A stretch of DNA of 64,000 bases from Eledone cirrhosa (lineage: Eukaryota). Below, in pieces: positions 12,140-34,389 of this stretch. Position numbers and translations under genes: made by a program. Below the pieces are notes generated by a model that saw only the letters and a program-made list of their open reading frames with translations, did not search any database and had not been told where the DNA came from. The DNA lies in assembly GCA_964016885.1 (NCBI GenBank), contig OZ024744.1, positions 125,612,001-125,676,000 on the forward strand. Reading direction: 5' to 3'. How positions within the stretch are numbered: the first letter of the stretch is position 1; each line of letters opens with the position of its first letter.

Positions 12140-12269
12140 TTTTTAACATTGTTTTGTTTTTCTTTTCTTTTCTTATTCAGATGACAAACGGCAGAGGATA
12201 CAACAGAAGAAAAGAACAAAGATAATTATTATTATTATTACTATTATTATTTGTTTTATTATAATCAAA

Positions 12270-13330: not shown

Positions 13331-13706
13331 ACGTGCAGGAATACTCTCACGGAATCGCCAAATGAGGTTTATTTTTCAACATAGTCCCTGGAATGAAACA
13401 ATGTGGTTATTAAGAAGAATTGAAATTAATGTAAGATTTCACAGATCTATGATCAATCCTTCACAGTCAGCTTACAAAGTTTTCAGCCAAACCTTGTGTA
13501 TTTCCAACATTTCAAACCCTATCTAGGACTACATTATCTAATGTACAGTACAGTAGTTAGTATTAGTGGCTATCAGACATAGTGTATCTAAATGCAACAT
13601 TTTTAACATTGTTTTTTTTTTCTTTTCTTTTCTTTTCTTATTCAGATGACAGACGGCAGAGGATACAATAGAAGAAAAGAACAATGATAATTATTATTAT
13701 TATTAT

Positions 13707-14110: not shown

Positions 14111-14151
<41 letters not shown>

Positions 14152-14184
14152 TATTATTTGTTTTATTATAATCAAAATATGCTG

Positions 14185-14705
14185 TTAGTTAGATCTGCAT
14201 TGTGTACATTTTATATAATTTATGCCAGTTCCTTTTCTACATATCGAACATGGCCATTTCCCTGACGGAATAGAGTTTTGTCCTCTTTTCTACTCATCAA
14301 CACTCATTCGTGACACAAAGTACAGCCAGCGGCATCATTGCGGACAGACTTAATCCTGATTTGCACTGACACACTGCCTCGCAATACGGAACACCGCACG
14401 TCTTTGATCTTCTTCCCGTCGATCAGCCTCCTTGCCATGCAAAGTACACCTGACGTCTAGCTTCTCTCTTAGCGGCGGCGGCTGTATATTCTTCTCTACT
14501 CCCACTAATTTTCCAAGCATTCCATGCTAGTCTTTAGTCTCCAATGGCCCGATCTACAGTTTCTGTCTCAACTCGTCTATGCTTGGTCGTTCCCGCACAT
14601 TGACATTGCACATCCAACGGAGCATGCTTGCTTCATTTCTCTCCAGCCGTCGCATGTCCTCTGCAGTTGCTGCCCGTGTCTCACTACCATGCAGCATCGC
14701 GCATC
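14185..14705 (-). mobile_element. RTE fragments (duplicate of ~12270-12620 plus a C-terminal piece)
   Basis: AMLHGSET...MRRLERNEASMLRWMCNV...ELRQKL. Copy 2 at ~48096-48613. Confidence 0.7.
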
Positions 14706-14715
14706 TAAACCTGGC

Positions 14716-15585
14716 CCTTACCCTAACCCCAACCTCTTTGGTTTTCGTTTTCTCGACGGCTAGCCGCATTTCGTGATCCGCCTTTCGATTGCGCTTCCGT
14801 CGCGGCAAAAGAATTGCCTTTCCAGACCGCCGTCGCCCGACCGGACCCATGATAGAAGACGTTCGTTACCGTTGGAGCAACGCAAATTACTCCTCGGTTG
14901 ACGCCAAAAACGAACGCCTTCCCGCCTCGCGCCGCCTTCTCCTCGCCGACCCTCGGCCTCGACGATTAGCCACTTTCCGTCACAGCAGTAGATACGCGTC
15001 CGTCGTAATAGCCGTCATTTTAACGCAGGAGAAACGCCTAATTGCCCTGCACCGCGTTTGACGGCGATCTACGACGGCGACGATGCGCGCACTCTTCCTT
15101 GCTGCGACGAAGGTTTCGGCTTTTCGTCGTGGACCCGGTCAGGTCATGCCGCTGACCTCGCGTTACGGCGACGCGAGAAGACGTTCGTTACCGCTGGAGC
15201 AACGCAAATTACTCCTCGGTTGACGCCAAAAACGAACGCCTCGCGCCGCCGCTTCCTCCTCGGCCTCGACGATTAGCCGCTTTCCGTCACAGCAGTAGAT
15301 ACGCGTCCATCGTAATAGCCGTCATTTTAACGCAGGAGAAACGCCTTGACGACGATATACGACGGGTCGACGACGCGCGCACTCTTTCTGCTGCGACGAA
15401 GGTTTTGGCTTTTCGTTGTGGACCCGGTCGGGTCATGCCTCTGACCTCGCGTTGCGTCGCCACCGCCGCGGCGGGCTTGGGTTTAGCCGTAGCTACCCTC
15501 GTTTTGCCAACGGCGACGCGAGAAGACGTTCGTTACCGCTGGAGCAACGCAAATTACTCCTCGGATGAGGCCAAAAACGAACGCT
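14716..15585 (+). repeat. Diverged dispersed copy of the rDNA spacer/ETS-like sequence (partial 172-bp unit + two ~320-350-bp units)
   Basis: Homologous to 21760-21930 and 22550-22920; shares the core GAAGACGTTCGTTACCGCTGGAGCAACGCAAATTACTCCTCGG; preceded by CCCTTACCCTAACCCCAACC. Copy 2 at 48624-49493. Confidence 0.8.
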
Positions 15586-15663
15586 GAAGAGATATTGTCC
15601 ATGGATATCGGGAATTTTACCCGCCCTAGATAGATAGATAGATAGGGATGTATGTATGTATGT

Positions 15664-15703
<40 letters not shown>

Positions 15704-16082
15704 GTATGTATCTTTCTCATTCTCTCTGTATGTATGTATGTATGTATATATATATAATTATATATTTATAGACATCCTGAAAGCTTTTTAAATGTCTGAG
15801 AGATTGGCTAAATATGTTTTGCAGGTATGACCAGTAAGAGAGAGGTAAGTTATTTCAAAACAATTCTTTGACCATTATTTTAAGGTACTATCTCAGTGTA
15901 TTTTTAAATTGACCTCTTGATAGGATGAAATGACCTGTATAATTTTTTTCATATTTAGATGGAATAGAAGAAAAACAAGAAAAATGAAATGAATTCAAAC
16001 AGAAAATATACACCAATGCCAATGGAGGTATGATTTCAGTTTAATCTTAACCTAATGACCACTTTACAGAGTGTACTGGATA

Positions 16083-16119
<37 letters not shown>

Positions 16120-16121
16120 CT

Positions 16122-16163
<42 letters not shown>

Positions 16164-16389
16164 AGGAAGCTCCAACCGTTAAGGTTGTCTTTCCATTTAT
16201 TAATATATTGTGTATTTACTCCACTAAACTGTTGAGTGCTTTATATCGGTTATAAAAAAATTTCAGCTTGTTGAATCCCAAAATAGTTGTTGAAACAGCC
16301 ACAGCTCAGCCGTCGGGGTCCTGAATATTTATCATATATATATACGTATGAGTGTGTGTGTTTTGAGAATTAATAATTATATAAACAAG

Positions 16390-17110
16390 TTTGTAATGAA
16401 CAATTTATTTCTTATCAAAACTGTATAAACATGATATTATTTACAGTAAGAATAACAATAATAATGATGGTTTCTAGTAAAGGTGGAAGGCCAGTAATTT
16501 GGGGGAGGGGAAAGTTGATTAAATCGAAGAGAGAAAGAAAGAAAAAACAGAACGGGAAGGAGAGGGGATGGCAAGAGGTCCGGTGTCGCAGGAGAGAGGG
16601 GAGGGTGGTTGAGCTTTGAGTCTAGGGCAAGAGGGCAGAAATGCTGCGCCCCACGGATAAGACGGCAAAAATATTCTCGCGGACGATGGCCAGAGATACC
16701 CAATGCAACAACCACCCAACCTCGCGGTGTTCCCTCCTCAGATGGGCTGCTGACTCTCCGATCTTTTGGAGGAGCTCGGCAGTACAAGGTCCAAGTACTC
16801 CTGGGGTCTCGACGTTGACTGGTGCAGAGAGGAAGTGGCCGGACAATCCTCGGTATTTGTTTATTTTACGTTCTTCTGCGAGGTGGGCTGCGATGCCGGG
16901 GTTTGTGACCGAAACGACTTGGAAACGAAGTTGTAGGCGGAGATTGTGTCGTAGCTGGTGGTGTCCCAGATGAGGGACCTACGTCCTTCGAATGGGAAGA
17001 GAGTGATTCCGTCGGGGCGCTTGCCATCTCCGGGACCTGTTGGCCCCAGTTGTGATGGGAAGCCAGCTGCGTCCAGGCTTCTTCTCAATATGTCGTTGAC
17101 AACGACGTGT
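16390..17110 (-). mobile_element. CRE-like (RLE) non-LTR retrotransposon 3' fragment
   Basis: VNDILRRSL...DGKRPDGITLFPF..RSLIWDTT...VETPGVLGP...VSLAIVREN, frameshifted, followed by 3' UTR-like sequence. Copy 2 at ~50256-50976. Confidence 0.72.
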
Positions 17111-17655
17111 ATCTATTCAATAATTATTTGAATATTGAAATTTTAGGTTTAACTACCTTTTAAACCAAATACATTAAGAAAGGCATGACCAACACCACAT
17201 CATTTTTATTTCTATTTTGAAAGTAGGTTTATAAGTATTAAATTTCAGTAGATTCTTATATCCTTCATGGTGGTCTGGTGGGAGATACGAGAGATGGTGG
17301 AGGTTCTGGTCTGGGGTTCAATCCTGCTCAGGAGATACTCTAAGGGGGTTCATACTAAACTTCTTCAGTGTTTCTTATCTCTAGAGACAAATATATATAC
17401 ATAAGGTAATCTGGTAAAGTTGTTAGAACATCACATAGAATTCTTTGTAGTATTTTTTCCAGTTCTTCAATCTGAGTTCAACTTTACTTTTCTTCCATTC
17501 GGGGTTGATAATAACGTACCAGTCAAATACTAGGGGTTAATTCTTCCTCTATATCTCTTTCTCACTCTCTGTCTGTTTTATTAAGACCTGGAGAGGTGAT
17601 GTACTCTACCAGGTTTTATAATGAGTGATGGGGTCATACCTGCCTGCTACACCTC

Positions 17656-17975
17656 TGTGTACTAAGTGTAGCATATTATATCCTTGTTCAGGGCCTTCCT
17701 GACATTACTGTGTACTAAGGGTAGCATTTTATATCCTTGTTCAGGGCCATCTTAACATTGCTGTGTACTAAGTGTAGCATATTATATCCTTGTTCGGGGC
17801 CTTCCTGACATTAGTGTGTACTGAGTGTAGATTTTAACATCCTTGTTCTGGGCCTTCCTAACATTACTGTGTACTGAGTGTAGATTTTAACATCTTTGTT
17901 CAGAGCCTTCCTTACATTACTGTGTACTAAGTGTAGCATTTCATATACTTGTTCTGGGCCTTCCTAACGTTACTG
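17656..17975. repeat. 52-53-bp minisatellite (6 units)
   Basis: Unit TGTGTACTAAGTGTAGCATATTATATCCTTGTTCAGGGCCTTCCTGACATTAC. Copy 2 starts at 51522. Confidence 0.9.
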
Positions 17976-18760
17976 TGGAAATAGTAGTTTATATCCAATA
18001 TGTAATATAGATATGGATTCTACAGGACTAAAACTCATTAATATGAGGGGTATTAGTAGATTATATGCCATATTTAATAGAGAAATGGCTTCTACAAGAC
18101 TAAAACTCATTAATATGAGGGGTATTACAGTTTATATGCCATATTTAATACAGAAATGGCTTCTAAAGGACTAGAACTCTTTAAATTGAATAAAATAGTA
18201 GTATATATCCTATGTTTAATACAGAAATGCCTTCTAAAGGACTAAAACTCATTAATATGAGGGTATTAGTAGATTATATAACATATTTAATACAGAAATG
18301 GCTTTTAAATTCAGGGACTCGTTAATTTGATGGAAATAGTAGTGTCTATGCAATATTTAATACAGAAATAGCTTCTACAGGACTAAAACTAATTAATATG
18401 AGGGGTATTAGTAGTATATGTGCCATATTTAATACAGAGATGGCTTCTAAATGGAGGGATCTCATTAATTCGATTGAAATGGTAGTGTATATGCAATATT
18501 TAATACAGAAATAGCTTCTACAAGAATAAAACTCATTAATATGAAGGTTATTATTACATTATATGCCATATTTAATACAGAAATCGGTTCTAAAGGACTA
18601 GAACTCTTTAATTCAAATCAAATAGTAGTATAAAGCAATATTTACTACAGAAATGGCTTCTACAAGACTAAAAATCCTTAATATGAGGGGTATTGTTAGA
18701 TTATATACCATATTTAATACAGAAATGGCTTCTAAATGAAGAAATCTCTTTAATTCGATA
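17976..18760. repeat. AT-rich ~71-bp minisatellite with two alternating subtypes (~11 units)
   Basis: Recurring ATATTTAATACAGAAATGGCTTCTA. Copy 2 at ~51842-52620. Confidence 0.88.
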
Positions 18761-19784
18761 GTAATAGTAATAATAATAATAGTAATAGTAATAATACAGC
18801 CAATTTTCCACGCAATACTTTTAGTTAGCACCCCGAACGCATAATTGGGAATATAATCACTTATTTCCTAATGTTTGTTGAGTGAGTTGGGAAAAAAACT
18901 TGGGAAATATATTTTCAGGGTCTCAAAATCTTAAAGAGAAAAAAAAGTCCTGTGGAAGGTAGCAAAACAATTAGGAAGAAAATGGTTTGAAGTTGGTTGG
19001 TGAGTATAAGATTACAGTATCTTGTTGATTTCTATAAAGTTTACTTTTAACTGAATTGGTAAAAATGGATAAATTAGAAGACACAATATAATAACTAATA
19101 TTGTCTTCTAAAACAGGGAATAAAAATATGTTGGTGTATTGGGGGGGGGGGGGGGGGTAAACATGTGAGTTAATGGGAATGTTTTTGTTTGTTTTTATTG
19201 AAACATATTCAATCTACAGATAGGTTGTTATAGTTATTTAGTCTCGGGTCTGCCATTATCTGCAGATTTATAATTGAGGGGTGTTCCAGGTGTGACCACC
19301 CTACATTATTCCTAGAGATTGTTACTCCTTCATTCTTCAGTCATCTTGGTCTTCTTATGAGATGGTGGTGTAGTCTTATTTATTGTTAAGGTTATGGTCT
19401 TCCTTTGTCCACACTCTCTATCTATCTATCTATCTATCAAAGGCTTCCTTCTCTGGAAAAAGATGATTTAATATTCACAACCATCTGTCTAATTGTTTTC
19501 TGATGAGAATAAAGTTAATCTTGCTTGTATGTCTACCTGATCAAATGACTGGCTGATATCTTGAAGTCATTTACACCACAGAACTGTAGGAGTCTTGATC
19601 CCTCAAGCCATACCTCTAGCCATCATGTACTCCAAAAGAGTCTCACCTTGGTGCTACTCAACATGTCCATTAAATTTAGCAGCAAGGATGCCCTCTTCTT
19701 AGTGAGAGACAACTACAAGAGAGGTTCTTAGAGAAGAATAAGCCACTATAGTTAACTTTTGTTGACATAGAGAACCCCGATCTG

Positions 19785-20465
19785 TCATCTGGTGGTCCTT
19801 AAGGAAACTAGGTGTAGGGGAATGGCTTGTGAGGACAGTGCAAGCTATGTACAAGGGTGCTGTCAGTAAAGTGAGAGGAGGAATTCCAGAAACAAAGTAG
19901 GTGTACATCAGGGTTCGGTCCTCAGTCCGCTCTTGTTCATTATAGTCCTCCCTCCCTCCCTCCCTCCCTCCCTCCAAGCCATAACAGAGGAGGAGTAGTT
20001 TAAGACTGGATGCCCATGGGAACTTCTCTATGCTGACGATCTGGTTCTTATAGCAGAATCAGTAGAGGAGCTAGCTAGAGAATAAATTCTGGCTATGGAA
20101 ACAGCAGTAGTTGGAATCAAGAAGACTGAGAGTGAACCTAGCTAAGACAAAAGTGTTTATAAGTAGAAGAGAGGACAAAACTCTGATTCTGTCAGGGAAA
20201 TGGCCATGTTCGATATGTAGGAAAGGAGTTGGCATAAATTCTATGAAATGTAGTACGCAATGCAGATCTTGGCTACACAAGAGATGTAGTGGGATAGCAG
20301 GAAAACTGACTGACAGGTAGGGAGAAATACGTATGCAGTAGATGTACAGGGAAATTTGACAGAGATTGCAGTGATAGACACATTTTTCAAATGCAGGTGG
20401 GATCTATAGAGGGAGTTGATAGCTTCTGATACCTAGGTGATCAGATTAGTAAGGGAGGAGGGTGA
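19785..20465 (+). mobile_element. RTE-clade RT core fragment with Cys/His-rich segment, degenerate
   Basis: GVHQGSVLSPLLFIIVL, GCPWELLYADDLVLIAES, LRVNLAKTKV and GKWPCSICRKGVG...C..C..WLHKRC. Copy 2 at ~53661-54341. Confidence 0.82.
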
Positions 20466-20799
20466 TATAAAATATATTGTTATCATGACTGTCTTTATTA
20501 TTTAAATTACCTCTGTCTATTTACAGATTTTACAGAGTGTACTGGGTGCTTTTATGATGGGAGCAGCAACTCTATACGATTTTACAGAGTGTACTTGGTG
20601 CTTTTATCATGGCACATGGCAGCAGCAGCAGCAGCAACTACGATTTTACAGAGTGTACTTGGTGCTTTTTACTCTGACATCAGCACTGAGGAAGTTGTCA
20701 TATTTTCAGCTAAATTAATGAGTAGAAAAACCAAGTTTCTGCTACAAAAAATTCTCAGATTCAAGGGAGACATTCAGTTTAAGTATGGTATACTGTCAC

Positions 20800-20965
20800 T
20801 AAGGCAGCAAATTGGCAGAGTCGCTAGAATATCAGATAGCATTCTTTACATTATTTGTTTCAGCTCTCTGTTCTCTCAATTCAAATCCTGCTCAGGTCAA
20901 CTTTGCCTTTCATCCATACAAAATAGATTAATAAAAGTACCAGTGTATTACTGGGGTCAATTCTT
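20800..20965 (+). mobile_element. Diverged SINE-like copy
   Basis: TTCAAATCCTGCTCAGGTCAACTTTGCCTTTCATCC...AAAGTACCAGT...ACTGGGGTCAAT. Copy 2 at ~54676-54841. Confidence 0.65.
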
Positions 20966-20993
20966 CTTCTAACTCTTCTGCACTTCCATTCTC

Positions 20994-21034
<41 letters not shown>

Positions 21035-21269
21035 GCTTCTTTAGAACACATCTGCTGTATTCAGACCTGGAGCGGAGATGGGCTCCACCAAGTTTTAAAA
21101 ATTGCCCTTTAAGCGCTGTATGTCAATATGGTGCCCCTATGATTCCCTCCCTCAGGAGTTATGGGACCATAGATACTGTCAATTGTAAAGAATAACAGAG
21201 ATATTCAGTGCTAGTGTGGTGTTCTGTCAGTTGTGGAGATTGATGAATCTAAACAGAAATATCAACAGC

Positions 21270-21455
21270 ACTTTTCATTTCTGAGTAACACATTTGTTAC
21301 CAAGTGCTGCATGGCTGGAATGAAAATCAGTGCTGTGAAAACCAAGACATTCATCCTCTCAAGGAAGCTTGTGCAGTGCACTCTACATGTAAATGGAGTC
21401 CCACTGAAGCAGGTAGAAAAGTTCATGTATCTCGAAGCTGTGTTCACGAGTGATG
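21270..21455 (+). mobile_element. LINE RT C-terminal fragment (RTE-like)
   Basis: GMKISAVKTK...NGVPLKQVEKFMYL..VFTSD. Copy 2 at ~55132-55317. Confidence 0.6.
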
Positions 21456-21593
21456 ACAGAGACGGCAAAGGCACAACACACAACAGAAGAAAAGAACAAT
21501 GACAATTATTATTATTATTATTATTATTATTTGTTTTATTAGTTTTATTATAATAAAAATTGTGCTGTTAGTTTGCTTGCTATACCATCATGT

Positions 21594-21687
21594 ACCCTAA
21601 CCCTAAACCTAACCCCAACTCCAACTCTGACCCTAAACCTAACCCCAACCCCAACCCCAACCCTAACCCTAACCCTAACCCTAACCC
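21594..21687. repeat. Interstitial telomere-type repeat (CCCTAA)n/(CCCCAA)n
   Basis: Perfect CCCTAA units abut the first 172-bp repeat; units become degenerate further left. Confidence 0.9.
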
Positions 21688-22616
21688 ACGATAGAAGACG
21701 TTCGTTACCGCTGGAGCAACGCAAATTACTCCTCGGTTGACGCCAAAAACGAACGCCTTCTCGACGGCTAGCCGCATTTCGTGATCCGCCTTTCGATTGC
21801 GCTTCCGTCGCGGAAAAAGAATTGCCTTTATAGGCCGCCGCCGCCGCCCGACCGGACCCACGATAGAAGACGTTCGTTACCGCTGGAGCAACGCAAATTA
21901 CTCCTCGGTTGACGCCAAAAACGAACGCCTTCTCGACGGCTAGCCGCATTTCGTGATCCGCCTTTCGATTGCGCTTCCGTCGCGGAAAAAGAATTGCCTT
22001 TATAGGCCGCCGCCGCCGCCCGACCGGACCCACGATAGAAGACGTTCGTTACCGCTGGAGCAACGCAAATTACTCCTCGGTTGACGCCAAAAACGAACGC
22101 CTTCTCGACGGCTAGCCGCATTTCGTGATCCGCCTTTCGATTGCGCTTCCGTCGCGGAAAAAGAATTGCCTTTATAGGCCGCCGCCGCCCGACCGGACCC
22201 ACGATAGAAGACGTTCGTTACCGCTGGAGCAACGCAAATTACTCCTCGGTTGACGCCAAAAACGAACGCCTTCTCGACGGCTAGCCGCATTTCGTGATCC
22301 GCCTTTCGATTGCGCTTCCGTCGCGGAAAAAGAATTGCCTTTATAGGCCGCCGCCGCCGCCCGACCGGACCCACGATAGAAGACGTTCGTTACCGCTGGA
22401 GCAACGCAAATTACTCCTCGGTTGACGCCAAAAACGAACGCCTTCTCGACGGCTAGCCGCATTTCGTGATCCGCCTTTCGATTGCGCTTCCGTCGCGGAA
22501 AAAGAATTGCCTTTATAGGCCGCCGCCGCCGCCCGACCGGACCCACGATAGAAGACGTTCGTTACCGCTGGAGCAACGCAAATTACTCCTCGGTTGACGC
22601 CAAAAACGAACGCCTT
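21685..22616 (+). repeat. 169/172-bp CpG-rich tandem repeats, putative rDNA IGS/spacer-promoter subrepeats (5.4 units)
   Basis: Unit starts at 21685, 21857, 22029, 22198, 22370 and 22542; units differ in (GCC)n count. Each full unit carries CTTTATAGGCC. The array ends ~360 bp upstream of the 18S 5' end. Confidence 0.85.
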
Positions 22617-22974
22617 CCGGTTCGGGCGACGTAAAAGTCTGTAGCCTTTTCGCCGATCCTCGACGATTATCCGCCTTCCGAACAACCGCCTTTCCGCCGT
22701 CACAGCAGTAGGTACTCGTCCGTCGTAATAGCCGTCATTTTAATGCAGGAGAAACGCCTAAATGCACTGCGATTGACGACGATCTACGACGCGCTTACTC
22801 TTCCTTGCTGCGACGAAGGTTTCGTTCGGCTTTTCGTCGTGGACCCGGTCAGGTCATGCCGCTGATCTCGCGTTGCGTCGTTACCGCTGGAGCAACGCAA
22901 ATTACTCCTCGTTTAACGCCAACATCGAACGCGCTTCGGTTCTCGGTCGTCGTTGTTTTGTTTCGTGCGGAAGA
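22617..22974 (+). other. 5' ETS-like segment
   Basis: CpG-rich sequence directly upstream of the 18S start; assignment is positional. Copy 2 at 56304-56661. Confidence 0.55.
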
Positions 22975-23160
22975 TACCTGGGTGATCCTGCCAGTAGTCA
23001 TATGCTTGTCTCAAAGCTTAAGCCATGCAAGTGGAAGTTCATGCCGTAAACGAAAATGGTGAAACCGCGAATGGCTCAGGAACCGGATCTAATCCTCGGG
23101 ACCGTATTCCTCACCGCGAGGAGAGGATAACTGTGGCAATTCTAGAGCTAATACATGCAA
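22975..23160 (+). pseudogene. 18S rRNA: 18S rRNA 5'-end fragment (~185 nt, diverged)
   Basis: TACCTGGGTGATCCTGCCAGTAGTCATATGCTTGTCTCAAAG.TTAAGCCATGCA...GGTGAAACCGCGAATGGCTCA...GGATAACTGTGGCAATTCTAGAGCTAATACATGC. Confidence 0.93.
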
Positions 23161-23166
23161 TTGAGA

Positions 23167-26100
23167 TCGGAGAGGGAGCGATCCGTCTGCTTGATTCCGA
23201 TAACGAACGAGACATTCGTATCCGAAAGAACGTTTGTCTGGAAACTGGTGAGTCAGTGAGTCGAAAAAAAAATATCTCGGTGGTAGTAGCAAATATTCGT
23301 ATGCGAAAGAAAAGATCTCGGTGGTAGTAGCAAATATTCGAACGAGACATTCGTATGCGAAAGAACGTTTGTCGGTGGTAGTAGCAAATATTCGAACGAG
23401 ACATTAGTATGCGAAAGAACGTTTGTCGGTGGTAGTAGCAAATATTCGAACGAGACATTCGTATGCGAAAGAACGTTTGTCTGGAAGTGGCGATCCATGC
23501 CCGGTGGATAGTTGGTTCCGGGTTTTACTATGATTGTTGCAAAACAAAAACTTAAAGGGATTGACAGAATTTGCGATTCCGGAGAGAGGGCGATCCGTCT
23601 GCTTGATTCCGATAACGAACGAGACATTCGTATCCGAAAGAACGTTTGTCTGGAAACTGGTGAGTCAGTGAGTCGAAAAAAAAATATCTCGGTGGTAGTA
23701 GCAAATATTCGAACGAGACATTCGTATGCGAAAGAACGTTTGTCGGTGGTAGTAGCAAATATTCGAACGAGACATTCGTATGCGAAAGAACGTTTGTCTG
23801 GAAGTGGCGATCCATGCCCGGTGGATAGTTGGTTCCGGGTTTTACTATGATTGTTGCAAAACAGAAACTTAAAGGGATTGACAGAATTTGCGATTACGGA
23901 GAGGGGGCGATCCGTCTGCTTGATTCCGATAACGAACGAGACATTCGTATCCGAAAGAACGTTTGTCTGGAAACTGGTGAGTCAGTGAGTCGAAAAAAAA
24001 ATATCTCGGTGGTAGTGGCAAATATTCGAACGAGACATTCGTATGCGAAAGAACGTTTGTCGGTGGTAGTAGCAAATATTCGAACGAGACATTCGTATGC
24101 GAAAGAACGTTTGTCTGGAAGTGGCGATCCATGCCCGGTGGATAGTTGGTTCCGGGTTTTACTATGATTGTTGCAAAACAGAAACTTAAAGGGATTGACA
24201 GAATTTGCGATTCCGGAGAGGGGGCGATCCGTCTGCTTGAATCCGATAACGAACGAGACATTCGTATCCGAAAGAACGTTTGTCTGGAAACTGGTGAGTC
24301 AGTGAGTCGAAAAAAAAATATCTCGGTGGTAGTAGCAAATATTCGTATGCGAAAGAAAAGATCTCGGTGGTAGTAGCAAATATTCGAACGAGACATTCGT
24401 AGGCGAAAGAAAAATATCTCGGTGGTAGTAGCAAATATTCGAACGAGACATTCGTATTCGAAAGAACGTTTGTCTGGAAGTTGCGATCCATGCCCGGTGG
24501 ATAGTTGGTTCCGGGTTTTACTATGATTGTTGCAAAACAGAAACTTAAAGGGATTGACAGAATTTGCGATTCCGGAGAGGGGGCGATCCGTCTGCTTGAT
24601 TCCGATAACGAACGAGACATTCGTATCCGAAAGAACGTTTGTCTGGAAACTGGTGAGTCAGTGAGTCGAAAAAAAAAATATCTCGGTGGTAGTAGCAACT
24701 ATTCGAACGAGACATTCGTATGCGAAAGAACGTTTGTCGGTGGTAGTAGCAAATATTCGAACGAGACATTCGTATGCGAAAGAACGTTTGTCTGGAAGTG
24801 GCGATCCATGCCCGGTGGATAGTTGGTTCCGGGTTTTACTATGATTGTTGCAAAACAGAAACTTAAAGGGATTGACAGAATTTGCCATTCCGGAGAGGGG
24901 GCGATCCGTCTGCTTGATTCCGATAACGAACGAGACATTCGTATCCGAAAGAACGTTTGTCTGGAAACTGGTGAGTCAGTGAGTCGAAAAAAAAAATATC
25001 TCGGTGGTAGTAGCAAATATTCGTATGCGAAAGAAAAGATCTCGGTGGTAGTAGCAAATATTCGAACGAGACATTCGTAGGCGAAAGAAAAATATCTCGG
25101 TGGTAGTAGCAAATATTCGAACGAGACATTCGTATGCGAAAGAACGTTTGTCGGTGGTAGTAGCAAATATTCGAACGAGACATTCGTATGCGAAAGAACG
25201 TTTGTCGGTGGTAGTAGCAAATATTCGAACGAGACATTCGTATGCGAAAGAACGTTTGTCGGTGGTAGTAGCAAATATTCGAACGAGACATTCGTATGCG
25301 AAAGAACGTTTGTCGGTGGTAGTAGCAAATATTCGAACGAGACATTCGTATGCGAAAGAACGTTTGTCTGGAAGTGGCGATCCATGCCCGGTGGATAGTT
25401 GGTTCCGGGTTTTACTATGATTGTTGCAAAACAGAAACTTAAAGGGATTGACAGAATTTGCGATTCCGGAGAGGGGGCGATCCGTCTGCTTGATTCCGAT
25501 AACGAACGAGACATTCGTATCCGAAAGAACGTTTGTCTGGAAACTGGTGAGTCAGTGAGTCGAAAAAAAAATATCTCGGTGGTAGTAGCAAATATTCGAA
25601 CGAGACATTCGTATGCGAAAGAACGTTTGTCTGGAAGTGGCGATCCATGCCCGGTGGATAGTTGGTTCCGGGTTTTACTATGATTGTTGCAAAACAGAAA
25701 CTTAAAGGGATTGACAGAATTTGCGATTCCGGAGAGGGGGCGATCCGTCTGCTTGATTCCGATAACGAACGAGACATTCGTATCCGAAAGAACGTTTGTC
25801 TGGAAACTGGTGAGTCAGTGAGTCGAAAAAAAAAATATCTCGGTGGTAGTAGCAAATATTCGAACGAGACATTCGTATGCGAAAGAACGTTTGTCGGTGG
25901 TAGTAGCAAATATTCGAACGAGACATTCGTATGCGAAAGAACGTTTGTCGGTGGTAGTAGCAAATATTCGAACGAGACATTCGTATGCGAAAGAACGTTT
26001 GTCTGGAAGTGGCGATCCATGCCCGGTGGATAGTTGGTTCCGGGTTTTACTATGATTGTTGCAAAACAGAAACTTAAAGGGATTGACAGAATTTGCGATT

Positions 26101-27765
26101 CCGGAGAGAGGGCGATCCGTCTGCTTGATTCCGATAACGAACGAGACATTCGTATCCGAGAGAACGTTTGTCTGGAAACTGGTGAGTCAGTGAGTCGAAA
26201 AAAAAATATCTCGGTGGTAGTAGCAAATATTCGAACGAGACATTCGTATGCGAAAGAACGTTTGTCTGGAAGTGGCGATCCATGCTCGGTGGATAGTTGG
26301 TTCCGGGTTTTACTATGATTGTTGCAAAACAGAAACTTAAAGGGATTGACAGAATTTGCGATTCCGGAGAGGGGGCGATCCGTCTGCTTGATTCCGATAA
26401 CGAACGAGACATTCGTATCCGAAAGAACGTTTGTCTGGAAACTGGTGAGTCAGTGAGTCGAAAAAAAAATATCTCGGTGGTAGTAGCAAATATTCGTATG
26501 CGAAAGAAAAGATCTCGGTGGTAGTAGCAAATATTCGAACGAGACATTCGTAGGCGAAAGAAAAATATCTCGGTGGTAGTAGCAAATATTCGAACGAGAC
26601 ATTCGTATTCGAAAGAACGTTTGTCTGGAAGTTGCGATCCATGCCCGGTGGATAGTTGGTTCCGGGCTTTACTATGATTGTTGCAAAACAGAAACTTAAA
26701 GGGATTGACAGAATTTGCGATTCCGGAGAGGGGGCGATCCGTCTGCTTGATTTCGATAACGAACGAGACATTCGTATCCGAAAGAACGTTTGTCTGGAAA
26801 CTGGTGAGTCAGTGAGTCGAAAAAAAAAATATCTCGGTGGTAGTAGCAAATATTCGAACGAGACATTCGTATGCGAAAGAACGTTTGTCGGTGGTAGTAG
26901 CAAATATTCGAACGAGACATTCGTATGCGAAAGAACGTTTGTCGGTGGTAGTAGCAAATATTCGAACGAGACATTCGTATGCGAAAGAACGTTTGTCTGG
27001 AAGTGGCGATCCATGCCCGGTGGATAGTTGGTTCCGGGTTTTACTATGATTGTTGCAAAACAGAAACTTAAAGGGATTGACAGAATTTGCGATTCCAGAG
27101 AGAGGGCGATCCGTCTGCTTGATTCCGATAACGAACGAGACATTCGTATCCGAAAGAACGTTTGTCTGGAAACTGGTGAGTCAGTGAGTCGAAAAAAAAA
27201 TATCTCGGTGGTAGTAGCAAATATTCGAACGAGACATTCGTATGCGAAAGAACGTTTGTCTGGAAGTGGCGATCCATGCTCGGTGGATAGTTGGTTCCGG
27301 GTTTTACTATGATTGTTGCAAAACAGAAACTTAAAGGGATTGACAGAATTTGCGATTCCGGAGAGGGGGCGATCCGTCTGCTTGATTCCGATAACGAACG
27401 AGACATTCGTATCCGAAAGAACGTTTGTCTGGAAACTGGTGAGTCAGTGAGTCGAAAAAAAAATATCTCGGTGGTAGTAGCAAATATTCGTATGCGAAAG
27501 AAAAGATCTCGGTGGTAGTAGCAAATATTCGAACGAGACATTCGTATGCGAAAGAAAAATATCTCGGTGGTAGTAGCAAATATTCGAACGAGACATTCGT
27601 ATTCGAAAGAACGTTTGTCGGTGGTAGTAGCAAATATTCGAACGAGACATTCGTATTCGAAAGAACGTTTGTCTGGAAGTTGCGATCCATGCCCGGTGGA
27701 TAGTTGGTTCCGGGCTTTACTATGATTGTTGCAAAACAGAAACTTAAAGGAATTGACAGAATTTT
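23167..27765 (+). repeat. rRNA-derived chimeric satellite: 13 units of ~209 bp + n x 54 bp
   Basis: Unit lengths include 263, 317, 359, 372 and 576 bp, with a 994-bp higher-order repeat (26034 to 27028). Contains SSU motifs CGATTCCGGAGAGGG, GATAACGAACGAGAC and GAAACTTAAAGG.ATTGAC, and LSU motif GATCTCGGTGGTAGTAGCAAATATTC. Confidence 0.92.
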
Positions 27766-27789
27766 CGAATCGACATCAACTCGGCTACG

Positions 27790-28150
27790 GCTATCCCGTC
27801 GAGTACGAGAGTATCGCGGGATCAGAGCAACGGTTTGCTAGGCTGCCTCTGAGCGATAACGGCTGAACGCCTCCTCTAAGCCGGAACCCTAGCCGGACCC
27901 GAGTTGTTTTTCGACAAGCGTCTCGACCTTCTTAAGGCCCATGCCTTAGTTTGGCGATTGCCGTCCGTTCGCCGGCAGCGTCAGCGGAAATGCCATTCTG
28001 TGACGACTACGACGATTCGTCGTCGTCGTCGTCCATTCGATTTCCTGAAAGAGATAGAGACTAAAGTGATCAAATTGTTCGGAGTTACGTGCTTAGTAGA
28101 GCAGCTACCACACTGCAATCTATTGAGAGTTTTCTGACGAACGATACAAT
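27790..28150 (+). pseudogene. 28S rRNA: 28S rRNA 3'-terminal fragment (diverged, internally deleted)
   Basis: AGTACGAGAG (sarcin-ricin loop region, truncated), GCTGAACGCCTC(CTC)TAAG, and GTAGAGCAGCTACCACACTGCAATCTATTGAGAG matching the terminal GCAGAGCAGCT...CTGCGATCTATTGAAAG of metazoan 28S. Confidence 0.82.
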
Positions 28151-28566
28151 CCGCCCACGTGGCGCCAGAAAGGGAGAAGAAAAGAAAAGTTAGACGCCGC
28201 CGATCGATCGGTTCGTTGTTTTACGTGTACACAGCTTGTGTGTGTGTCTGTATGTGATACAAGCCGCCTATCCGTCTTCCAAGTAAGTTTTGTGTGTAGA
28301 CTGCGGAAAGAAATCCAATCCGCCGTCTAGGCGGTTCTGCCGCCGACCCATACTTTTGCGAGTCGCTCCCGGGAAAGACAGGCGGCAAGACGGCGTGTAT
28401 ACACGACGCCTTCCGTCTTCCGCCTCGAACCCGGGCAAACGTTCCTTTATTCGTCCACGCCTTCCCGCTTCGATCGCGAGAAAGTAATCAATCTGTTTTG
28501 TGTGTGTGTCTGTGTGTGATACAAATTTGTTTTCTTAATTTGATAACCATGAATTGTTTCAACACC

Positions 28567-28582
28567 GGCCCTTTTAAGGGCC
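28567..28582 (+). promoter_or_regulatory. Histone-mRNA-type 3' stem-loop, orphan
   Basis: AACACC-GGCCCT-TTTA-AGGGCC-ACTTA: 6-bp stem, 4-nt loop and flanks fit the SLBP-site consensus. No histone ORF upstream. Confidence 0.55.
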
Positions 28583-29007
28583 ACTTATATTTTCAATAAT
28601 CAGTTTAAATGGGTTGCACCGTAGCCACTTGGTAATACACTGCAAATCTCCCGTCAATCTATGAAGGTTTTGTAGTAGATTAGATCAAAACACAATCAGC
28701 AAGACAGTAATGGAATGAATAATATAAACATTTGTTTATAATTAAAGCCTTAAGATGTCCCTCCCTCCCTCCCTTCCTCCCTTCCTTCCTTCCTTCCTTC
28801 CTTCCTTACGATATACACTTTAATAACATTGAAACTTATTTAATAAGTTTAAATTTTAAACACTTTTTATTCAGACGTACCGCGATAAGTAACTAGATAT
28901 GTTCTAACGAATAATCCGCGATGTGGCGAGGATTACCGCGATAGGAAATTAGATACGTTCCAAAGAAATATCCGCGAAAAGTGAACCGCGATATAGCGGG
29001 TTCACCA

Positions 29008-29353
29008 GCCAGTGTATTACTGGTACTTTATTTTATCGACCCCCATAAGGATGAAAGGCAAAGTTAACTGTGCAATAACAAAGGGAGATAACCTCGTCTT
29101 TTTTTTTTTACGGAGTTATTTCCCTTTAAATTTTATCTATTACTTATGATGATACAATTTAATCAGTTCTTAGCTGTCGAGACACTGCATCCTTTAAAAC
29201 CTCCATGGAACAAGCTACCTGCAACAGTTGTTAGCTGTCGAGACACTGCATCTTTTAAAACCTCCATGGAACAAACTACCTGCATCAGTTGTTAGGGTCT
29301 GAGTTCAAATCACGCCGAGGAGGTTAACTTTGCCTTTCATCCTTACGGGGTCG
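29008..29353. mobile_element. Inverted pair of SINE fragments flanking a 61-bp CR1-derived tandem dimer
   Basis: 29008-29068 is the reverse complement of the SINE core, 29295-29353 is the forward core, and 29162-29294 matches the CR1 ORF2 C-terminus. Copy 2 at ~61125-61470. Confidence 0.75.
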
Positions 29354-29562
29354 GTCGGAAAACGAACCATTCCCGGTTCGCTTTCGAAGCGGGTTTCCGA
29401 AAACAGCGCTTCTCTCGACCGGGCCCGTCGTCCGCTCGGCGGTGGTTTTCATCGTCCCAGGCACGGCTAACAGGCGGAGACGGGACAAACGCGCGTGTTC
29501 CTTTTTTTATCAGCCGCAGCGCCGTTCGTATATATGCTTAGGTTGTTTTTTTTTTAAATATC

Positions 29563-29778
29563 CTAAGTTAAGTTGGGGCTAAGTTAAGTTGGGGCTAAGT
29601 TAAGTTGAGGTTAAGTTGAGTTGGGGTTAAGTTAAGTGGGGGTTAAGTTAAGCTGGGGTTAAGTTAAGTTGGGGTTAAGTCAAGTTGGGGTTAAGTTAAG
29701 TTGGGGTTAAGTTAGGTTGGGGTTAAGTTAGGTTGGGGTTAAGTTAAGTTGGGGTTAAGTTAGGTTGCGGTTAAGTTA
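29563..29778 (+). repeat. 16-bp G-rich repeat (GGGGTTAAGTTAAGTT)n, ~13 units
   Basis: Directly visible; spaced G4 runs. Confidence 0.93.
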
Positions 29779-32700
29779 CATTCGCCGCCGGACTTCAGCT
29801 TCCTCATTTAGCATGGGCAGTTTTTCTTGAAAATCACACCACACACAGCAAATGTGTGTCCGCACATGTACCAGTAATTACAGATCGATTCCGGTGAAAA
29901 TTCACTGTAAACGGGCCATCCGGCCCTGTGCGTCGATCGTGGGCCGGCCGGATGTTGACGGATCGATGTGTAATTAGAAGTACATGTGCGGACACTCATT
30001 GGCTGTGCGTGGTATGCATTTCAGCAAGATATCTCCGTAACATCAAGAGTTATGGCTGTGGAGGCACACCTAGTCAAACGTAAACAAGGTCTGGAGCGTT
30101 TACGCTTCGCGATTTTGTTTACGTTTGACTAGGTGTGCCTCCACAGCCATAACTCTTGATGTTACGGAGATATCTTGCTGAAATGCATACCGCGCACAGC
30201 CAATGAGTGTCCGCACATGTACTTCTAATTACACATCGATCCGTCAACATCCGGCCGGCCCACGATCGACGCACAGGGCCGGATGGCCCGTTTTCAGTGA
30301 ATTTTCACCGGAATCGATCTGTAATTACTGGTACATGTGCGGAGACACATTTGCTGTGTGTGGTGTGATTTTCAAGAAAAACTGCCCATGCTAAATGAGG
30401 AAGCTGAAGTCCGGCGGCGAATGGTGTGCTTCGAAGAAAACTAATTCGAAAATGACCGTTTGCAGGCGGAGTAACCTTTTCGATCGTGGGCCAGCCGCCC
30501 GTGGTGGGATCCATCTGTAATTACTGGTACATGTGCGGACATACATTTGCTGTGTGTGGTGTGATTTTCAAGAAGAACTGCCCATGCTAAATGAGGAAGC
30601 TGAAGTCCGCCGGCGAATGGTGTGCTTCGAAGAAAACTAATTCGAAAATGACCGTTTGCAGGCGGGGTAACCTTTTCGATCGTGGGCCAGCCGCCCGTGG
30701 TGGGATCCATCTGTAATTACTGGTACATGTGCGGACACACATTTGCTGTGTGTGGTGTGATTTTCGAGAAAGACTGCCCATGCTAAATGAGGAAGCTGAA
30801 GTCCGCCGGCGAATGGTGTGCTTCGAAGAAAACTAATTCGAAAATGACTATTTGCCGGCGGAATCACCTTTTCGGTCCTGGTCCGGCCGGATCTTGCCGG
30901 ATCGATCGGAAATTTGTGGACCATGTTCGGAAGGCCATTGTGCATGTGTGGTGAAAAAAATTTGTGTCGAAATCTTCTCGGAAAATAACGGATCGCCGGC
31001 GGAGATTGCCATTTCGATCGTGGGCCGGCCGGATCTTGTCGGATCGATTCGGACATATGTGCATCGTGTTCGCAAGGCCCTTGTCTATGTGTGGTGTGAT
31101 TTTCATAAAGAAATTCCGAAAAACCCAGTTTTAAATCTGATTTCGCCAAAGAATTTTGGCTATCAGATCGGGTTGAAAGGTATGGTTTCAGGTCGATCTG
31201 AAAGTCTAAAATGGAATTCACTCGGTTAGCTAACTATTGATATATCGGAGATATCTTTCTGAAAATCACACCACACACTCCCAATGAGTGTCTGCACATG
31301 TACCAGTAATTACAGATGGATCCCACCACGGGCGGCCGGCCCACGATCGAAAAGGTTACTCCGAAGCACACCATTCGCCGGCGGAATTCATTTAGCATGG
31401 GCAGTTTTTCTCGAAAATCACACCACACACAGCCAATGAGTGTCCGCACATGTACCAGTAATTACAGATGGATCCCACCACGGGCGGCTGGCCCACGATC
31501 GAAAAGGTTACTCCGCCTGCAAACGGTCATTTTCGAATTCGTTTTCTTCGAAGCACACGATTCGCCGGCGGACTTCAGCTGCCTCATTTAGCATGGGCAG
31601 TTTTTCTCGAAAATCACACCACACACAGCAAATGTGTGTCCGCACATGTACCAGTAATTACAGATCGATTCCGGTGAAAATTCACTGAAAACGGGCCATT
31701 CGGCCCTGTGCGTCGATCGTGGGCCGGCCGGATGTTGACGGATCGATGTGTAATTAGAAGTACATGTGCGGACACTCATTGGCTGTGCGTGGTATGCATT
31801 TCAGCAAGATATCTCCGTAACATCAAGAGTTATGGCTGTGGAGGCACACCTAGTCAAACGTAAACAAGCTCTGGAGCGTATACGCTTCGCGATTTTGTTT
31901 ACGTTTGACTAGGTGTGCCTCCACAGCCACAACTCTTGATGTTACGGAGATATCTTGCTGAAATGCATACCACGCAAAGCCAATGAGTGTCCGCACATGT
32001 ACTTCTAATTACACATCGATCCGTCAACATCCGGCCGGCCCACGATCGACGCACAGGGCCGGATGGCCCGTTTGCAGTGAATTTTCACCGGAATCGATTT
32101 GTAATTACTGGTACATGTGCGGACACACATTTGCTGTGTGTGGTGTGATTTTCGAGAAAAACTGCCCATGCTAAATGAGGAAGCTGAAGTCCGCCGGCGA
32201 ATGGTGTGCTTCGAAGAAAACTAATTCGAAAATGACCGTTTGCAGGCGGAGTAACCTTTTCGATCGTGGGCCAGCCGCCCGTGGTGGGATACATCTGTAA
32301 TTACTGGTACATGTGCGGACACACATTTGCTGTGTGTGGTGTGATTTTCGAGAAAGACTGCCCATGCTAAATGAGGAAGCTGAAGTCCGCCGGCGAATGG
32401 TGTGCTTCGAAGAAAACTAATTCGAAAATGACTATTTGCCGGCGGAATCACCTTTTCGGTCCTGGTCCGGCCGGATCTTGCCGGATCGATCGGAAATTTG
32501 TGGACCATGTTCGGAAGGCCATTGTGCATGTGTGGTGAAAAAAATTTGTGTCGAAATCTTCTCGGAAAATAACGGATCGCCGGCGGAGATTGCCATTTCG
32601 ATCGTGGGCCGGCCGGATCTTGTCGGATCGATTCGGACATATGTGCATCGTGTTCGCAAGGCCCTTGTCTATGTGTGGTGTGATTTTCATAAAGAAATTC

Positions 32701-34389
32701 CGAAAAACCCAGTTTTAAATCTGATTTCGCCAAAGAATTTTGGCTATCAGATCGGGTTGAAAGGTATGGTTTCAGGTCGATCTGAAAGTCTAAAATGGAA
32801 TTCACTCGGTTAGCTAACTTTTGATATATCGGAGATATCTTTCTGAAAATCACACCACACACTCCCAATGAGTGTCTGCACATGTACCAGTAATTACAGA
32901 TGGATCCCACCACGGGCGGCCGGCCCACGATCGAAAAGGTTACTCCGAAGCACACCATTCGCCAGCGGAATTCATTTAGCATGGGCAGTTTTTCTCGAAA
33001 ATCACACCACACACAGCCAATGAGTGTTCGCACATGTACCAGTAATTACAGATGGATCCCATCACGGGCGGCTGGCCCACGATCGAAAAGGTTACTCCGC
33101 CTGCAAACGGTCATTTTCGAATTCGTTTTCTTCGAAGCACACGATTCGCCGGCGGACTTCAGCTGCCTCATTTAGCATGGGCAGTTTTTCTCGAAAATCA
33201 CACCACACACAGCAAATGTGTGTCCGCACATGTACCAGTAATTACAGATCGATTCCGGTGAAAATTCACTGAAAACGGGCCATTCGGCCCTGTGCGTCGA
33301 TCGTGGGCCGGCCGGATGTTGACGGATCGATGTGTAATTAGAAGTACATGTGCGGACACTCATTGGCTGTGCGTGGTATGCATTTCAGCAAGATATCTCC
33401 GTAACATCAAGAGTTATGGCTGTGGAGGCACACCTAGTCAAACGTAAACAAGCTCTGGAGCGTATACGCTTCGCGATTTTGTTTACGTTTGACTAGGTGT
33501 GCCTCCACAGCCACAACTCTTGATGTTACGGAGATATCTTGCTGAAATGCATACCACGCACAGCCAATGAGTGTCCGCACATGTACTTCTAATTACACAT
33601 CGATCCGTCAACATCCGGCCGGCCCACGATCGACGCACAGGGCCGGATGGCCCGTTTGCAGTGAATTTTCACCGGAATCGATTTGTAATTACTGGTACAT
33701 GTGCGGACACACATTTGCTGTGTGTGGTGTGATTTTCACGAAAAACTGCCCATGCTAAATGAGGAAGCTGAAGTCCGCCGGCGAATGGTGTGCTTCGAAG
33801 AAAACTAATTCGAAAATGACCGTTTGCAGGCGGAGTAACCTTTTCGATCGTGGGCCAGCCGCCCGTGGTGGGATACATCTGTAATTACTGGTACATGTGC
33901 GGACACACATTTGCTGTGTGTGGTGTGATTTTCGAGAAAGACTGCCCATGCTAAATGAGGAAGCTGAAGTCCGCCGGCGAATGGTGTGCTTCGAAGAAAA
34001 CTAATTCGAAAATGACTATTTGCCGGCGGAATCACCTTTTCGGTCCTGGTCCGGCCGGATCTTGCCGGATCGATCGGAAATTTGTGGACCATGTTCGGAA
34101 GGCCATTGTGCATGTGTGGTGAAAAAAATTTGTGTCGAAATCTTCTCGGAAAATAACGGATCGCCGGCGGAGATTGCCATTTCGATCGTGGGCCGGCCGG
34201 ATCTTGTCGGATCGATTCGGACATATGTGCATCGTGTTCGCAAGGCCCTTGTCTATGTGTGGTGTGATTTTCATAAAGAAATTCCGAAAAACCCAGTTTT
34301 AAATCTGATTTCGCCAAAGAATTTTGGCTATCAGATCGGGTTGAAAGGTATGGTTTCAGGTCGATCTGAAAGTCTAAAATGGAATTCAC
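29779..34389. repeat. CpG-rich foldback array: ~196-bp monomers in alternating orientation, 1584-bp higher-order period, three long palindromes
   Basis: Palindrome centres at 30101, 31881 and 33465, each with a 27-bp spacer. Arms are 309 bp (first) and ~480 bp. Mirror-image ORFs appear in the track (e.g. 29808-29999 - and 30203-30394 +). Confidence 0.93.

Follow-up and report, generated by a model that had tools for sequence, protein, structure and literature searches.

Satellites derived from ribosomal DNA (rDNA) usually consist of one collinear block or of an intergenic spacer (IGS) subrepeat. In plants they comprise IGS families and the Capsicum 'mega-satellite', which, as far as the cited account goes, covers spacers together with parts of the coding regions (PMC13655049). 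Like these, the satellite of Eledone cirrhosa analyzed here is non-coding tandem DNA from an rDNA monomer and lies outside the active array, whereas the plant families in that account are built of IGS motifs or larger monomer fragments (PMC13655049) and the present one of 15–60-bp pieces that come from 18S, ITS1 and 28S, follow one another in scrambled order and are nested within retained rDNA flanks. Displaced copies that gain mutations and rearrangements are also described for human rDNA, with dispersal linked to centromeric regions in the portion of the report that deals with it; those copies are degraded near-full-length units or segments, whereas in Eledone a collapsed unit had its core re-amplified as a homogeneous satellite (PMC5381670). 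SINE28 and the rDNA fragments carried by transposable elements are likewise multi-copy and made from rRNA-gene pieces, yet SINE28, as characterized in the source passage, is a dispersed retroposon with 28S sequence, while the Eledone element is tandem and part of a segmental macro-repeat (PMC10946416). The element does not qualify as a SINE or processed retrocopy: its copies are tandem macro-repeat copies with identical flanks, and by eye they have no tail or duplication.

Drosophila X-heterochromatin contains a 60-kb repeat with Stellate, a retroelement and rDNA fragments. The Eledone block is likewise a large tandem heterochromatic unit with LINE debris and rDNA fragments, and we know of no internal mosaic satellite in the Drosophila repeat. 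Tandem duplication-random loss scrambles mitochondrial gene order and keeps the strand; in that analogy whole genes under selection are rearranged, whereas here the pieces are 15–60 bp and likely non-functional. No report of a scrambled 18S/ITS1/28S satellite was found in the literature searched, which includes only a minority of subscription journals.

A mosaic satellite in the core of a collapsed rDNA unit

The window, that is, the whole 64-kb stretch of DNA analyzed, contains two head-to-tail tandem arrays, of 13 and 8 units (Table 1). The first had been placed at 23167..27765 in a preliminary description and is confirmed with slightly wider limits, its units measuring 263–576 bp. The 54-bp D+C subrepeat and the count of one to seven D pieces per unit, both reported earlier, hold across the 13 units. 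The 994-bp higher-order repeat survives only in part: about two copies share 0.97–1.0 identity (25600 to 26599), but elsewhere identity is 0.22–0.55.

Table 1. Features of the element and its surroundings (window coordinates; native positions are given in the feature or remark column).
Positions	Strand	Feature	Remark
599..34389	+	~34-kb macro-repeat unit carrying the element	98.4–99.3% identity to next unit
21594..21687	+	(CCCTAA)n-type tract	distally degenerate
21684..22617	+	5.4 copies of 169–172-bp repeat	from native upstream (putative 5'ETS) modules
22618..22974	+	further ETS pieces	native 1964-2002, 2445-2687, 1636-1694, 3523-3566
22975..23165	+	18S rRNA nt 1-191	~95% identity to native
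23166..27772	+	mosaic satellite, 13 units, A B C G (D C)n F E	begins within A, finishes in A-like stub
25461..25478	+	piece A, 18S:575-592	example unit
25474..25512	+	piece B, 18S:2042-2080	shared words: 5 nt with A, 10-nt end with D
25514..25532	+	piece C, ITS1:289-307	19/19
25533..25558		26-bp stretch	internal short duplication
25559..25573	-	inverted copy of ITS1 bases immediately 3' of C	A-run lengthened
25573..25611	+	piece D, 28S:2083-2121	
25608..25626	+	second C (ITS1)	reached by backward jump; D+C = 54-bp subrepeat
25635..25655	+	piece F, 28S:1390-1413	
25658..25719	+	piece E, 18S:1843-1900	reached by backward jump; then backward jump to A
27773..28187	+	28S 3' end and 3'ETS start	RF02543, 62.8 bits, E 3e-13
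28238..28492	+	spacer piece	from ~2.1–2.35 kb beyond native 28S end
55459..60723	+	second element copy, 8 mosaic units	in next macro-repeat unit

The 263-bp unit was jump-aligned to the genome's own rDNA, with 40 dinucleotide shuffles as controls. The score of 101 compares with 15.9±3.8 (maximum 26) for the shuffles, and 202 of the 263 bases are assigned to short native pieces; a second native unit with an uninterrupted R2 site gave the same outcome. Each unit contains three backward jumps (D to C, F to E and E to A) and one local inversion of 13–15 bp. The alignment gave neither a collinear match to one region nor matches at shuffle level. A collinear origin from a second rDNA type was also considered and dropped, no such type being present in the four mapped native units or the 20 dispersed loci examined. 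The satellite is a true mosaic of the genome's own rDNA.

The identities proposed earlier were largely accurate: A, B and E match the genome's own 18S and D its 28S, the tail of E fitting 18S:1977-1986 as well. C, thought to be small-subunit sequence, is instead ITS1. Among stretches previously left unassigned, GGCGATCC... is now resolved as piece F, but about 26 bp (25533-25558) stay unassigned, with no match scoring 9 or more. The scrambled order thus stands, but the mosaic is one of 18S, ITS1 and 28S, and the pieces are not all in sense. Exact 12-mers shared with native rDNA cover 60 of 263 unit positions in sense and none in antisense; the short piece at 25559-25573 is nevertheless an inverted ITS1 copy, the sole match in 16.5 kb of native rDNA searched on both strands. 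Its native segment is flanked by two ACGT palindromes.

The array had been taken for a free-standing satellite of conserved motifs. Its flanks retain the native order of ETS, 18S 5' end, 28S 3' end and spacer, with substitutions of 3.9–8.7% relative to native rDNA; between them, the core of the collapsed rDNA unit has been amplified into the satellite. The repeat of 169–172 bp derives from native modules 1618-1697 and 1784-1963 (unit L023; 93–95% identity), about 800 bp of native ETS are missing, and the block with the 28S 3' end and 3'ETS carries deletions of 26, 39 and 15 bp. No 5.8S match exists in the window, 18S is retained only at 1-191 and 28S only at its 3' end, and the complete, ordered 18S, 5.8S and 28S of a functional 45S unit are lacking. 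A TATA-like motif that occurs seven times in the native unit, a putative Pol I start motif, is absent from the window; the element begins ~220 nt after the last such putative start. All parts of the element lie within or near the likely transcribed region, an observation that counts against a collapse of the kind proposed below.

At 21684 the telomere-type tract meets the ETS with a 4-nt overlap (ACCC) that keeps the telomere register, and a degenerate tract of this type precedes a second ETS block, at 14749, by 28 bp. Today the joint is interstitial, at 125.6 Mb of the 136.5-Mb contig C28, and the macro-repeat unit contains further tracts of this kind. The 16-bp repeat at 29564, after the 28S fragment, was considered as a trace of telomere healing and rejected, since it belongs to the large satellite flanking the array.

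Copies in the genome and in public runs

The collapsed unit occurs dozens of times in the genome. Near-identical copies of its macro-repeat number at least 39 on contig C28, with others besides, and sit between large satellite blocks. Contigs with the element (C28, C18, C178, C760 and C1549) differ from those with native rDNA units (C12, C25 and C4); the satellite is outside functional rDNA arrays. Of 15 copies compared, 13 have identical element flanks and two differ by a single base; the array measures 0.7–13.4 kb in 34 of the 39 paired C28 copies. Order variants among the copies (CG, CC, DD and GC) indicate that reordering is ongoing. The 34-kb block is shared with LINE debris and microsatellites and includes an intact reverse transcriptase (RT) ORF; R2-site inserts are present in the genome's rDNA. 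A histone gene link was rejected, the only sign being an orphan 3' stem-loop and none of the listed ORFs looking histone-like.

Words of the unit were found in 20 of 24 listed public runs, covering 17 organism codes and 17 studies, with shares of 0.38–0.77. None of these runs is recorded as RNA, which speaks neither for nor against expression. Eight of the 20 (X11, X1, X5, X9, X17, X2, X6 and X18) were read at contig level, and all eight have contigs with unit sequence. Only X11, which may be the source sample, covers the entire right flank deeply (30 of 30 bins, with element-specific joins); as a rough ratio only, its element-specific contigs have a depth of 3,938–4,030 against 3,571–3,707 for native 28S variants. 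In X1, X5, X9 and X17 (left stretch) and in X2, X6 and X18 (right), unit pieces appear at contig depths of ~2–70. In X1, native-type ETS and 18S of Eledone cirrhosa also appear, at depth 4–5, far below the depth of that run's own rRNA-like contigs; other high-copy repeats of this species occur in X2, X6 and X18. Horizontal or clade-wide spread was set aside, the low-depth unit pieces being read as trace DNA of Eledone cirrhosa.

That the array arose from chimeric reads, or from rRNA primer sites concatenated during PCR, is hardly conceivable. Several pieces are presumably conserved rRNA motifs of the primer-site kind, as such an artefact of assembly or library would have it, but the grammar and flanks are the same in every copy read (C28, C18, C760 and C1549), contigs of all eight examined runs hold the unit, and its ITS1, ETS and spacer pieces are species-specific.

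Junctions and the origin of the mosaic

Words shared at the junctions span 2–10 nt. Within ±8 nt of the eight testable junctions the longest common words are 4, 5, 8, 5, 5, 6, 5 and 2 nt, against a null mean of 3.57 (P 0.0006; P 0.013 without B-D). The test is post hoc, with junction ends chosen by the analyst, and its signal depends on the ±8-nt slack and presupposes point changes after the joins were made. Strict microhomology at the mosaic junctions is 0–1 nt, except at B-D (10). At seven small deletions (9–39 bp) in the rDNA-derived blocks it is 3, 6, 3, 2, 6, 3 and 1 nt (null mean 0.72), and at six large deletions in dispersed rDNA copies 0–2 nt, below the mosaic junctions. The small deletions favour the collapse proposed next; the values at the large deletions and the low strict microhomology of the mosaic itself count against it.

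We consider it probable, at about two chances in three, that a displaced rDNA unit was eroded by microhomology-guided deletion and duplication and amplified by unequal exchange, and is non-functional. Observed directly are the map of pieces and its flanks, the constant grammar of the units, the distribution of the copies and the words shared across the junctions; four steps are inferred beyond this. An rDNA piece would have left the array and broken in the 5'ETS, losing the putative Pol I start, and the broken end would have been joined to, or capped by, telomere-type repeats. Deletions would then have cut down the ~9.9 kb that separate 18S:191 from the 28S 3' end to a few islands of 15–60 bp. 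The three backward joins may have arisen as tandem duplication followed by loss, with one hairpin-loop inversion adding to the scrambling; C could then follow B as well as D, as these two pieces end in the same 10 nt. Recent unequal exchange could finally have acted at three levels, multiplying the subrepeat of 54 bp, the mosaic unit and the 34-kb block as a whole. The native-order flanks on both sides support such a DNA-level collapse. The antisense ITS1 piece beside C requires both strands or a foldback; for yeast, the cited text reports short inversions produced by foldback at DNA breaks (PMC11724301).

With D left out, four of the five pieces fall within conserved rRNA cores, a weak bias (P ~0.02). 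Random deletion does not predict this bias, which is a point against the collapse. Survival of low-GC pieces was not significant (P 0.10).

Among the 20 dispersed rDNA-like loci, 14 have more than 1 kb of rDNA, eight of these with internal gaps of at least 350 bp (several in L182). Sequence upstream of the putative start is included in L165, L166 and L176, a 72–87-bp 28S repeat adjoins the R2 site in L167, L176 and L182, and L174 has one 84-bp inverted piece. Beyond that repeat and that inversion the 20 loci show no backward joins of short pieces, and no partly collapsed, collinear intermediate with the islands of the mosaic was found among them; both observations count against the collapse, whereas the internal gaps favour it. 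The missing intermediate would fit one catastrophic repair event, in which serial microhomology-mediated template switching at an rDNA break wrote the whole chain of pieces before amplification; so would the shared words, the local inversion and the very short pieces with tightly packed breakpoints, a rare outcome of many independent kilobase deletions. We regard this event as unlikely: serial switching should use both strands, which the wholly sense 12-mers do not reflect, the flanks carry many separate small deletions, and stepwise loss is seen in the dispersed copies.

Sense orientation and the conserved-core bias would be accounted for if the RT of a retroelement had copied pre-rRNA and its breakdown pieces with template switching and the chimeric cDNA had been inserted. 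Nearly all pieces are in sense, the bias leans to conserved, protected rRNA, the element starts just past the last putative Pol I start motif, and the R2-site inserts and intact RT ORF point the same way. In vitro, R2 RT makes serial jumps across at least 10 templates, jumping being defined in the cited text as using 0–2 base pairs, with overhangs above 2 nt inhibitory (10.1101/2021.04.30.442027). By that definition the 4–10 nt shared at our junctions do not suit R2 jumping (10.1101/2021.04.30.442027). One piece is antisense, the right flank extends ~2.3 kb beyond the 28S end, and by eye there is neither a poly(A) tail nor a target-site duplication; nor would random capture of RNA pieces be expected to leave long flanks in native order that carry small deletions. 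We judge reverse transcription of pre-rRNA quite unlikely, and less likely than a DNA-level origin.

The unit was folded as proposed earlier and formed no RNA structure more stable than its shuffles (z -0.17 and 0.04), and no gathering-level Rfam match lies inside the array. These results weigh against selection for the element as a mini-rDNA, a candidate decoy or small-RNA source in which the ETS modules, together with the conserved rRNA motifs, would be bound by rDNA factors or give rise to small RNAs against rRNA or R2-inserted units. The near-equal X11 depth of element and native 28S contigs (a rough ratio), the 5-fold amplification of ETS modules and the lean to conserved cores agree with it. 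However, the putative start motif is absent, the pieces are substituted, array length varies widely, and the element was amplified together with LINE debris and microsatellites as one 34-kb block between large satellite tracts, which explains its copy number without selection; such selection has only a very slight chance of being right. A more far-reaching reading, which we consider highly improbable, is a mini-rDNA that lacks a promoter and is similar to real rDNA in abundance; serial template switches, on pre-rRNA or on rDNA, would have made its core, a concatemer of conserved rRNA pieces, and it would act as a decoy for rDNA-binding factors or as a small-RNA source against rRNA or R2-inserted units.

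With a collapsed and re-amplified unit, the birth of a satellite from an essential gene family can be followed in one genome, where nearly all of its bases can be traced. That genome contains the donor, the junctions, the flanks and amplification at three nested levels (54 bp, ~300 bp and ~34 kb), which makes models of how satellites originate (deletion at microhomologies, duplication followed by loss, unequal exchange) testable at the base level. The array likely cross-reacts with short conserved 18S/28S oligonucleotide probes and inflates rDNA counts based on k-mers or reads, and its high copy number means that trace DNA of Eledone cirrhosa can appear in other datasets. If expressed or associated with the nucleolus, it would be an unrecognized kind of rDNA decoy.

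Mosaic satellite within a collapsed rDNA unit

The satellite lies inside a collapsed rDNA unit, which is itself part of a macro-repeat of about 34 kb. Because the flanking rDNA ends keep their native order, about 9.9 kb of the unit has been replaced by the satellite. Every copy read shares a common grammar, ETS repeats, 18S 5′ end, [A B C G (D C)n F E]m and 28S 3′ end, with minor internal variants. The comparison took in the window, 18 further loci on contigs C28 and C18 (15 of which hold the array), a joined C18 stretch, and six loci on C760 and C1549. The C18 copy (L012:3950–4250) is cut short within its 28S 3′ end and continues with a different part of the macro-repeat.

Coordinates of the element, its satellite arrays and pieces, and the R2-site insert (pieces in native C12 numbering)
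Feature	Location	Remark
(CCCTAA)n tract	window 21594–21687	upstream of satellite
ETS-derived repeats and pieces	window 21684–22974	upstream of satellite
18S nt 1–191	window 22975–23165	upstream of satellite
Mosaic satellite array 1	window 23166–27772	13 units, 263–576 bp each
28S 3′ end	window 27773–28187	downstream of satellite; RF02543, 62.8 bits
Spacer piece	window 28238–28492	downstream of satellite
Mosaic satellite array 2	window ~56850–59885	8 units
Piece A	18S:575–592	match to native rDNA
Piece B	18S:2042–2080	match to native rDNA
Piece C	ITS1:289–307	match to native rDNA
Piece D	28S:2081–2121	match to native rDNA
Piece F	28S:1390–1413	match to native rDNA
Piece E	18S:1843–1900	match to native rDNA
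R2-site insert	L024:1460–2700 (assembly G000, C12)	also on C25, C4 and in dispersed copies

In array 1 we recovered both the one to seven D pieces per unit and the 54-bp D+C subrepeat of the preliminary description. Its 994-bp higher-order repeat is only local, with identity of 0.97–1.0 from start positions 25600–26599 and 0.22–0.55 elsewhere. In another copy of the array, at L053, the period measures about 3.7 kb.

Other fragments occur nearby. A second, independently deleted 5′ETS block lies at window 14749–15584, 28 bp past a degenerate CCCTAA-type tract, and at 29359–29778 a 28S:691–895 fragment is fused directly to a 16-bp repeat, the one whose large tracts border the C28 array. Orphan histone 3′ stem-loops (RF00032, 36.6 bits) lie at 28562–28606 and 60679–60723, 70 bp past the rDNA spacer piece; no histone-like ORF was noticed upstream of them.

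Native rDNA and the origin of the pieces

A 5.8S search of the assembly located tandem native units on C12, C25 and C4, with a GC-rich 18S of 2,872–2,878 nt. An 18S of such length, along with TTAGGG-type repeats, would fit a long-branch animal, for example a coleoid cephalopod. At the 28S R2 site, an insert of 1.2 kb (1.18–1.26 kb) is present in each of the 13 rDNA loci checked, some of which overlap, and no ORF of at least 140 aa was found inside it. It looks like a non-autonomous R2-derived element (compare PMC3414825). Only one exact uninterrupted R2 site was found in the assembly, and the piece map made on that unit is unchanged.

Two-strand jumping alignment to native rDNA assigned 202 of 263 unit bases with a score of 101, against 15.9±3.8 (maximum 26) for 40 shuffles. 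Shuffled units still cover a mean of 142 bases, so the result rests on the score and not on coverage. Within each unit the order runs backward three times, from D to C, from F to E and from E to A, and the non-collinear mosaic stands well above controls. A, B and E are SSU and D is LSU, as had been proposed; C, thought to be probable SSU, is from ITS1. Exact 12-mers place 60 positions in sense and none in antisense, yet the unit is not wholly sense, since the A-rich stretch before D has a single native match, immediately 3′ of C and in minus orientation. The native segment has an ACGT palindrome at each end, and the stretch is a local inversion. Short foldback inversions are known at yeast DNA breaks (PMC11724301). 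About 26 bp of the unit have no native placement.

The motifs had also been called conserved. Among 34 rDNA contigs of at least 3 kb from distant eukaryotes (from 79 loci, L061–L139, listed of 104 matches), this holds for A (0.98), E (0.90) and B (0.83), less for F (0.69), and not for C (0). D was left out because it served as the search motif. The bias over random placement (P 0.021, n=5) is weak, because the hypothesis was pre-supplied, the pieces are few and fast-evolving ones could hide in unassigned bases; the favoured origin, described below, does not explain it.

At the eight junctions with both sides known, whose ends were picked by the analyst, the longest words shared within ±8 nt measure 4, 5, 8, 5, 5, 6, 5 and 2 (null mean 3.57, P 0.0006; P 0.013 without B–D). 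Strict microhomology is 0–1, except 10 at B–D, so the signal presupposes later point changes. Seven deletions of 9–39 bp in rDNA-derived blocks show strict microhomology of 3, 6, 3, 2, 6, 3 and 1 against a null mean of 0.72. Two of them are true losses, since the removed sequence is conserved in distant eukaryotes; the 39-bp difference from native rDNA could have either polarity. Among 20 dispersed rDNA-like loci, 14 hold more than 1 kb of rDNA and eight of these 14 have internal gaps of at least 350 bp, with only 0–2 nt of microhomology at six measured gaps; a scramble like that of the satellite is seen in none of the 20. Taken together, the junction words, small deletions and gapped copies favour an origin in which an rDNA unit would have eroded at the DNA level, with same-strand duplication followed by loss alongside, a reading to which we give roughly two chances in three. 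That one serial-switching event produced the mosaic is unlikely. Reverse transcription is slightly less likely again; R2-type jumping relies on 0–2 base pairs, and longer overhangs inhibit it (10.1101/2021.04.30.442027), a poor fit to these junctions.

The many dispersed copies (L164–L183) vary widely: some are almost complete units that have lost kilobases, while others are isolated inserts of 125–145 bp with 5.8S alone (L177, L179, L180, L183), which may be retrocopies.

Amplification and genomic setting

When 40 of 100 candidates from an 18S 5′ search were scored, 39 fell on C28 at 124.72–126.28 Mb and one on C18; for the 28S 3′ end (40 of 110 scored), 38 fell on C28 and two on C178. Arrays in 34 of 39 pairable copies span 0.7–13.4 kb, with a median of 6.0 kb and 202 kb in all. 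Of 15 copies compared, 13 share the same 546-bp flank to the base (one of them over an alignment of 486 bp) and two depart from it at a single base, and flanks diverge from native rDNA by 3.9–8.7%, which argues for one old origin and recent amplification. Contig depth in sequencing run X11 is 3,938–4,030 for element-specific contigs and 3,571–3,707 for native 28S variants, suggesting a rough ratio near 1:1 in that run, although depth does not equal copy number and the run may derive from the source sample itself.

Long 16-bp satellite tracts border the C28 block (124.60–124.69, 127.0 and 127.5 Mb), large and in mixed orientation on either side, and 196-bp-repeat tracts adjoin the C18 copy; the copies therefore likely lie in heterochromatin. 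The 196-bp repeat, with large tracts on C18 at 6.76–6.80 Mb, forms in window 29779–34389 long inverted arms (palindromes of about 650 and 1,080 bp) and a 1,584-bp period, possibly of centromeric or breakage-fusion origin. The macro-repeat also holds a LINE ORF2 (window 8418–11291, minus strand), an uninterrupted 957-aa frame in which both an endonuclease and a reverse transcriptase domain are recognised (PF03372, PF14529, PF00078).

Known satellites and significance

The mosaic qualifies as an rDNA-derived satellite, of a non-collinear form rather than the usual collinear or IGS one. Among described cases, the nearest are the IGS satellites of plants and the Capsicum mega-satellite (PMC13655049), the degraded rDNA units of the human genome (PMC5381670) and SINE28 (PMC10946416). 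No scrambled 18S/ITS1/28S satellite came up in the limited literature searched.

The unit gives no fold signal on either strand. The native unit has seven occurrences of a TATA-like motif, the putative Pol I start, and the last of them lies about 220 nt upstream of the point where the element begins; the motif is absent across the 64-kb window. The satellite is real and unusual, and is probably junk. Unit words occur in public runs X1–X20 (17 organism codes), and seven of eight runs examined look like trace carry-over of the source organism's high-copy DNA. The satellite unit could act as a contamination marker.
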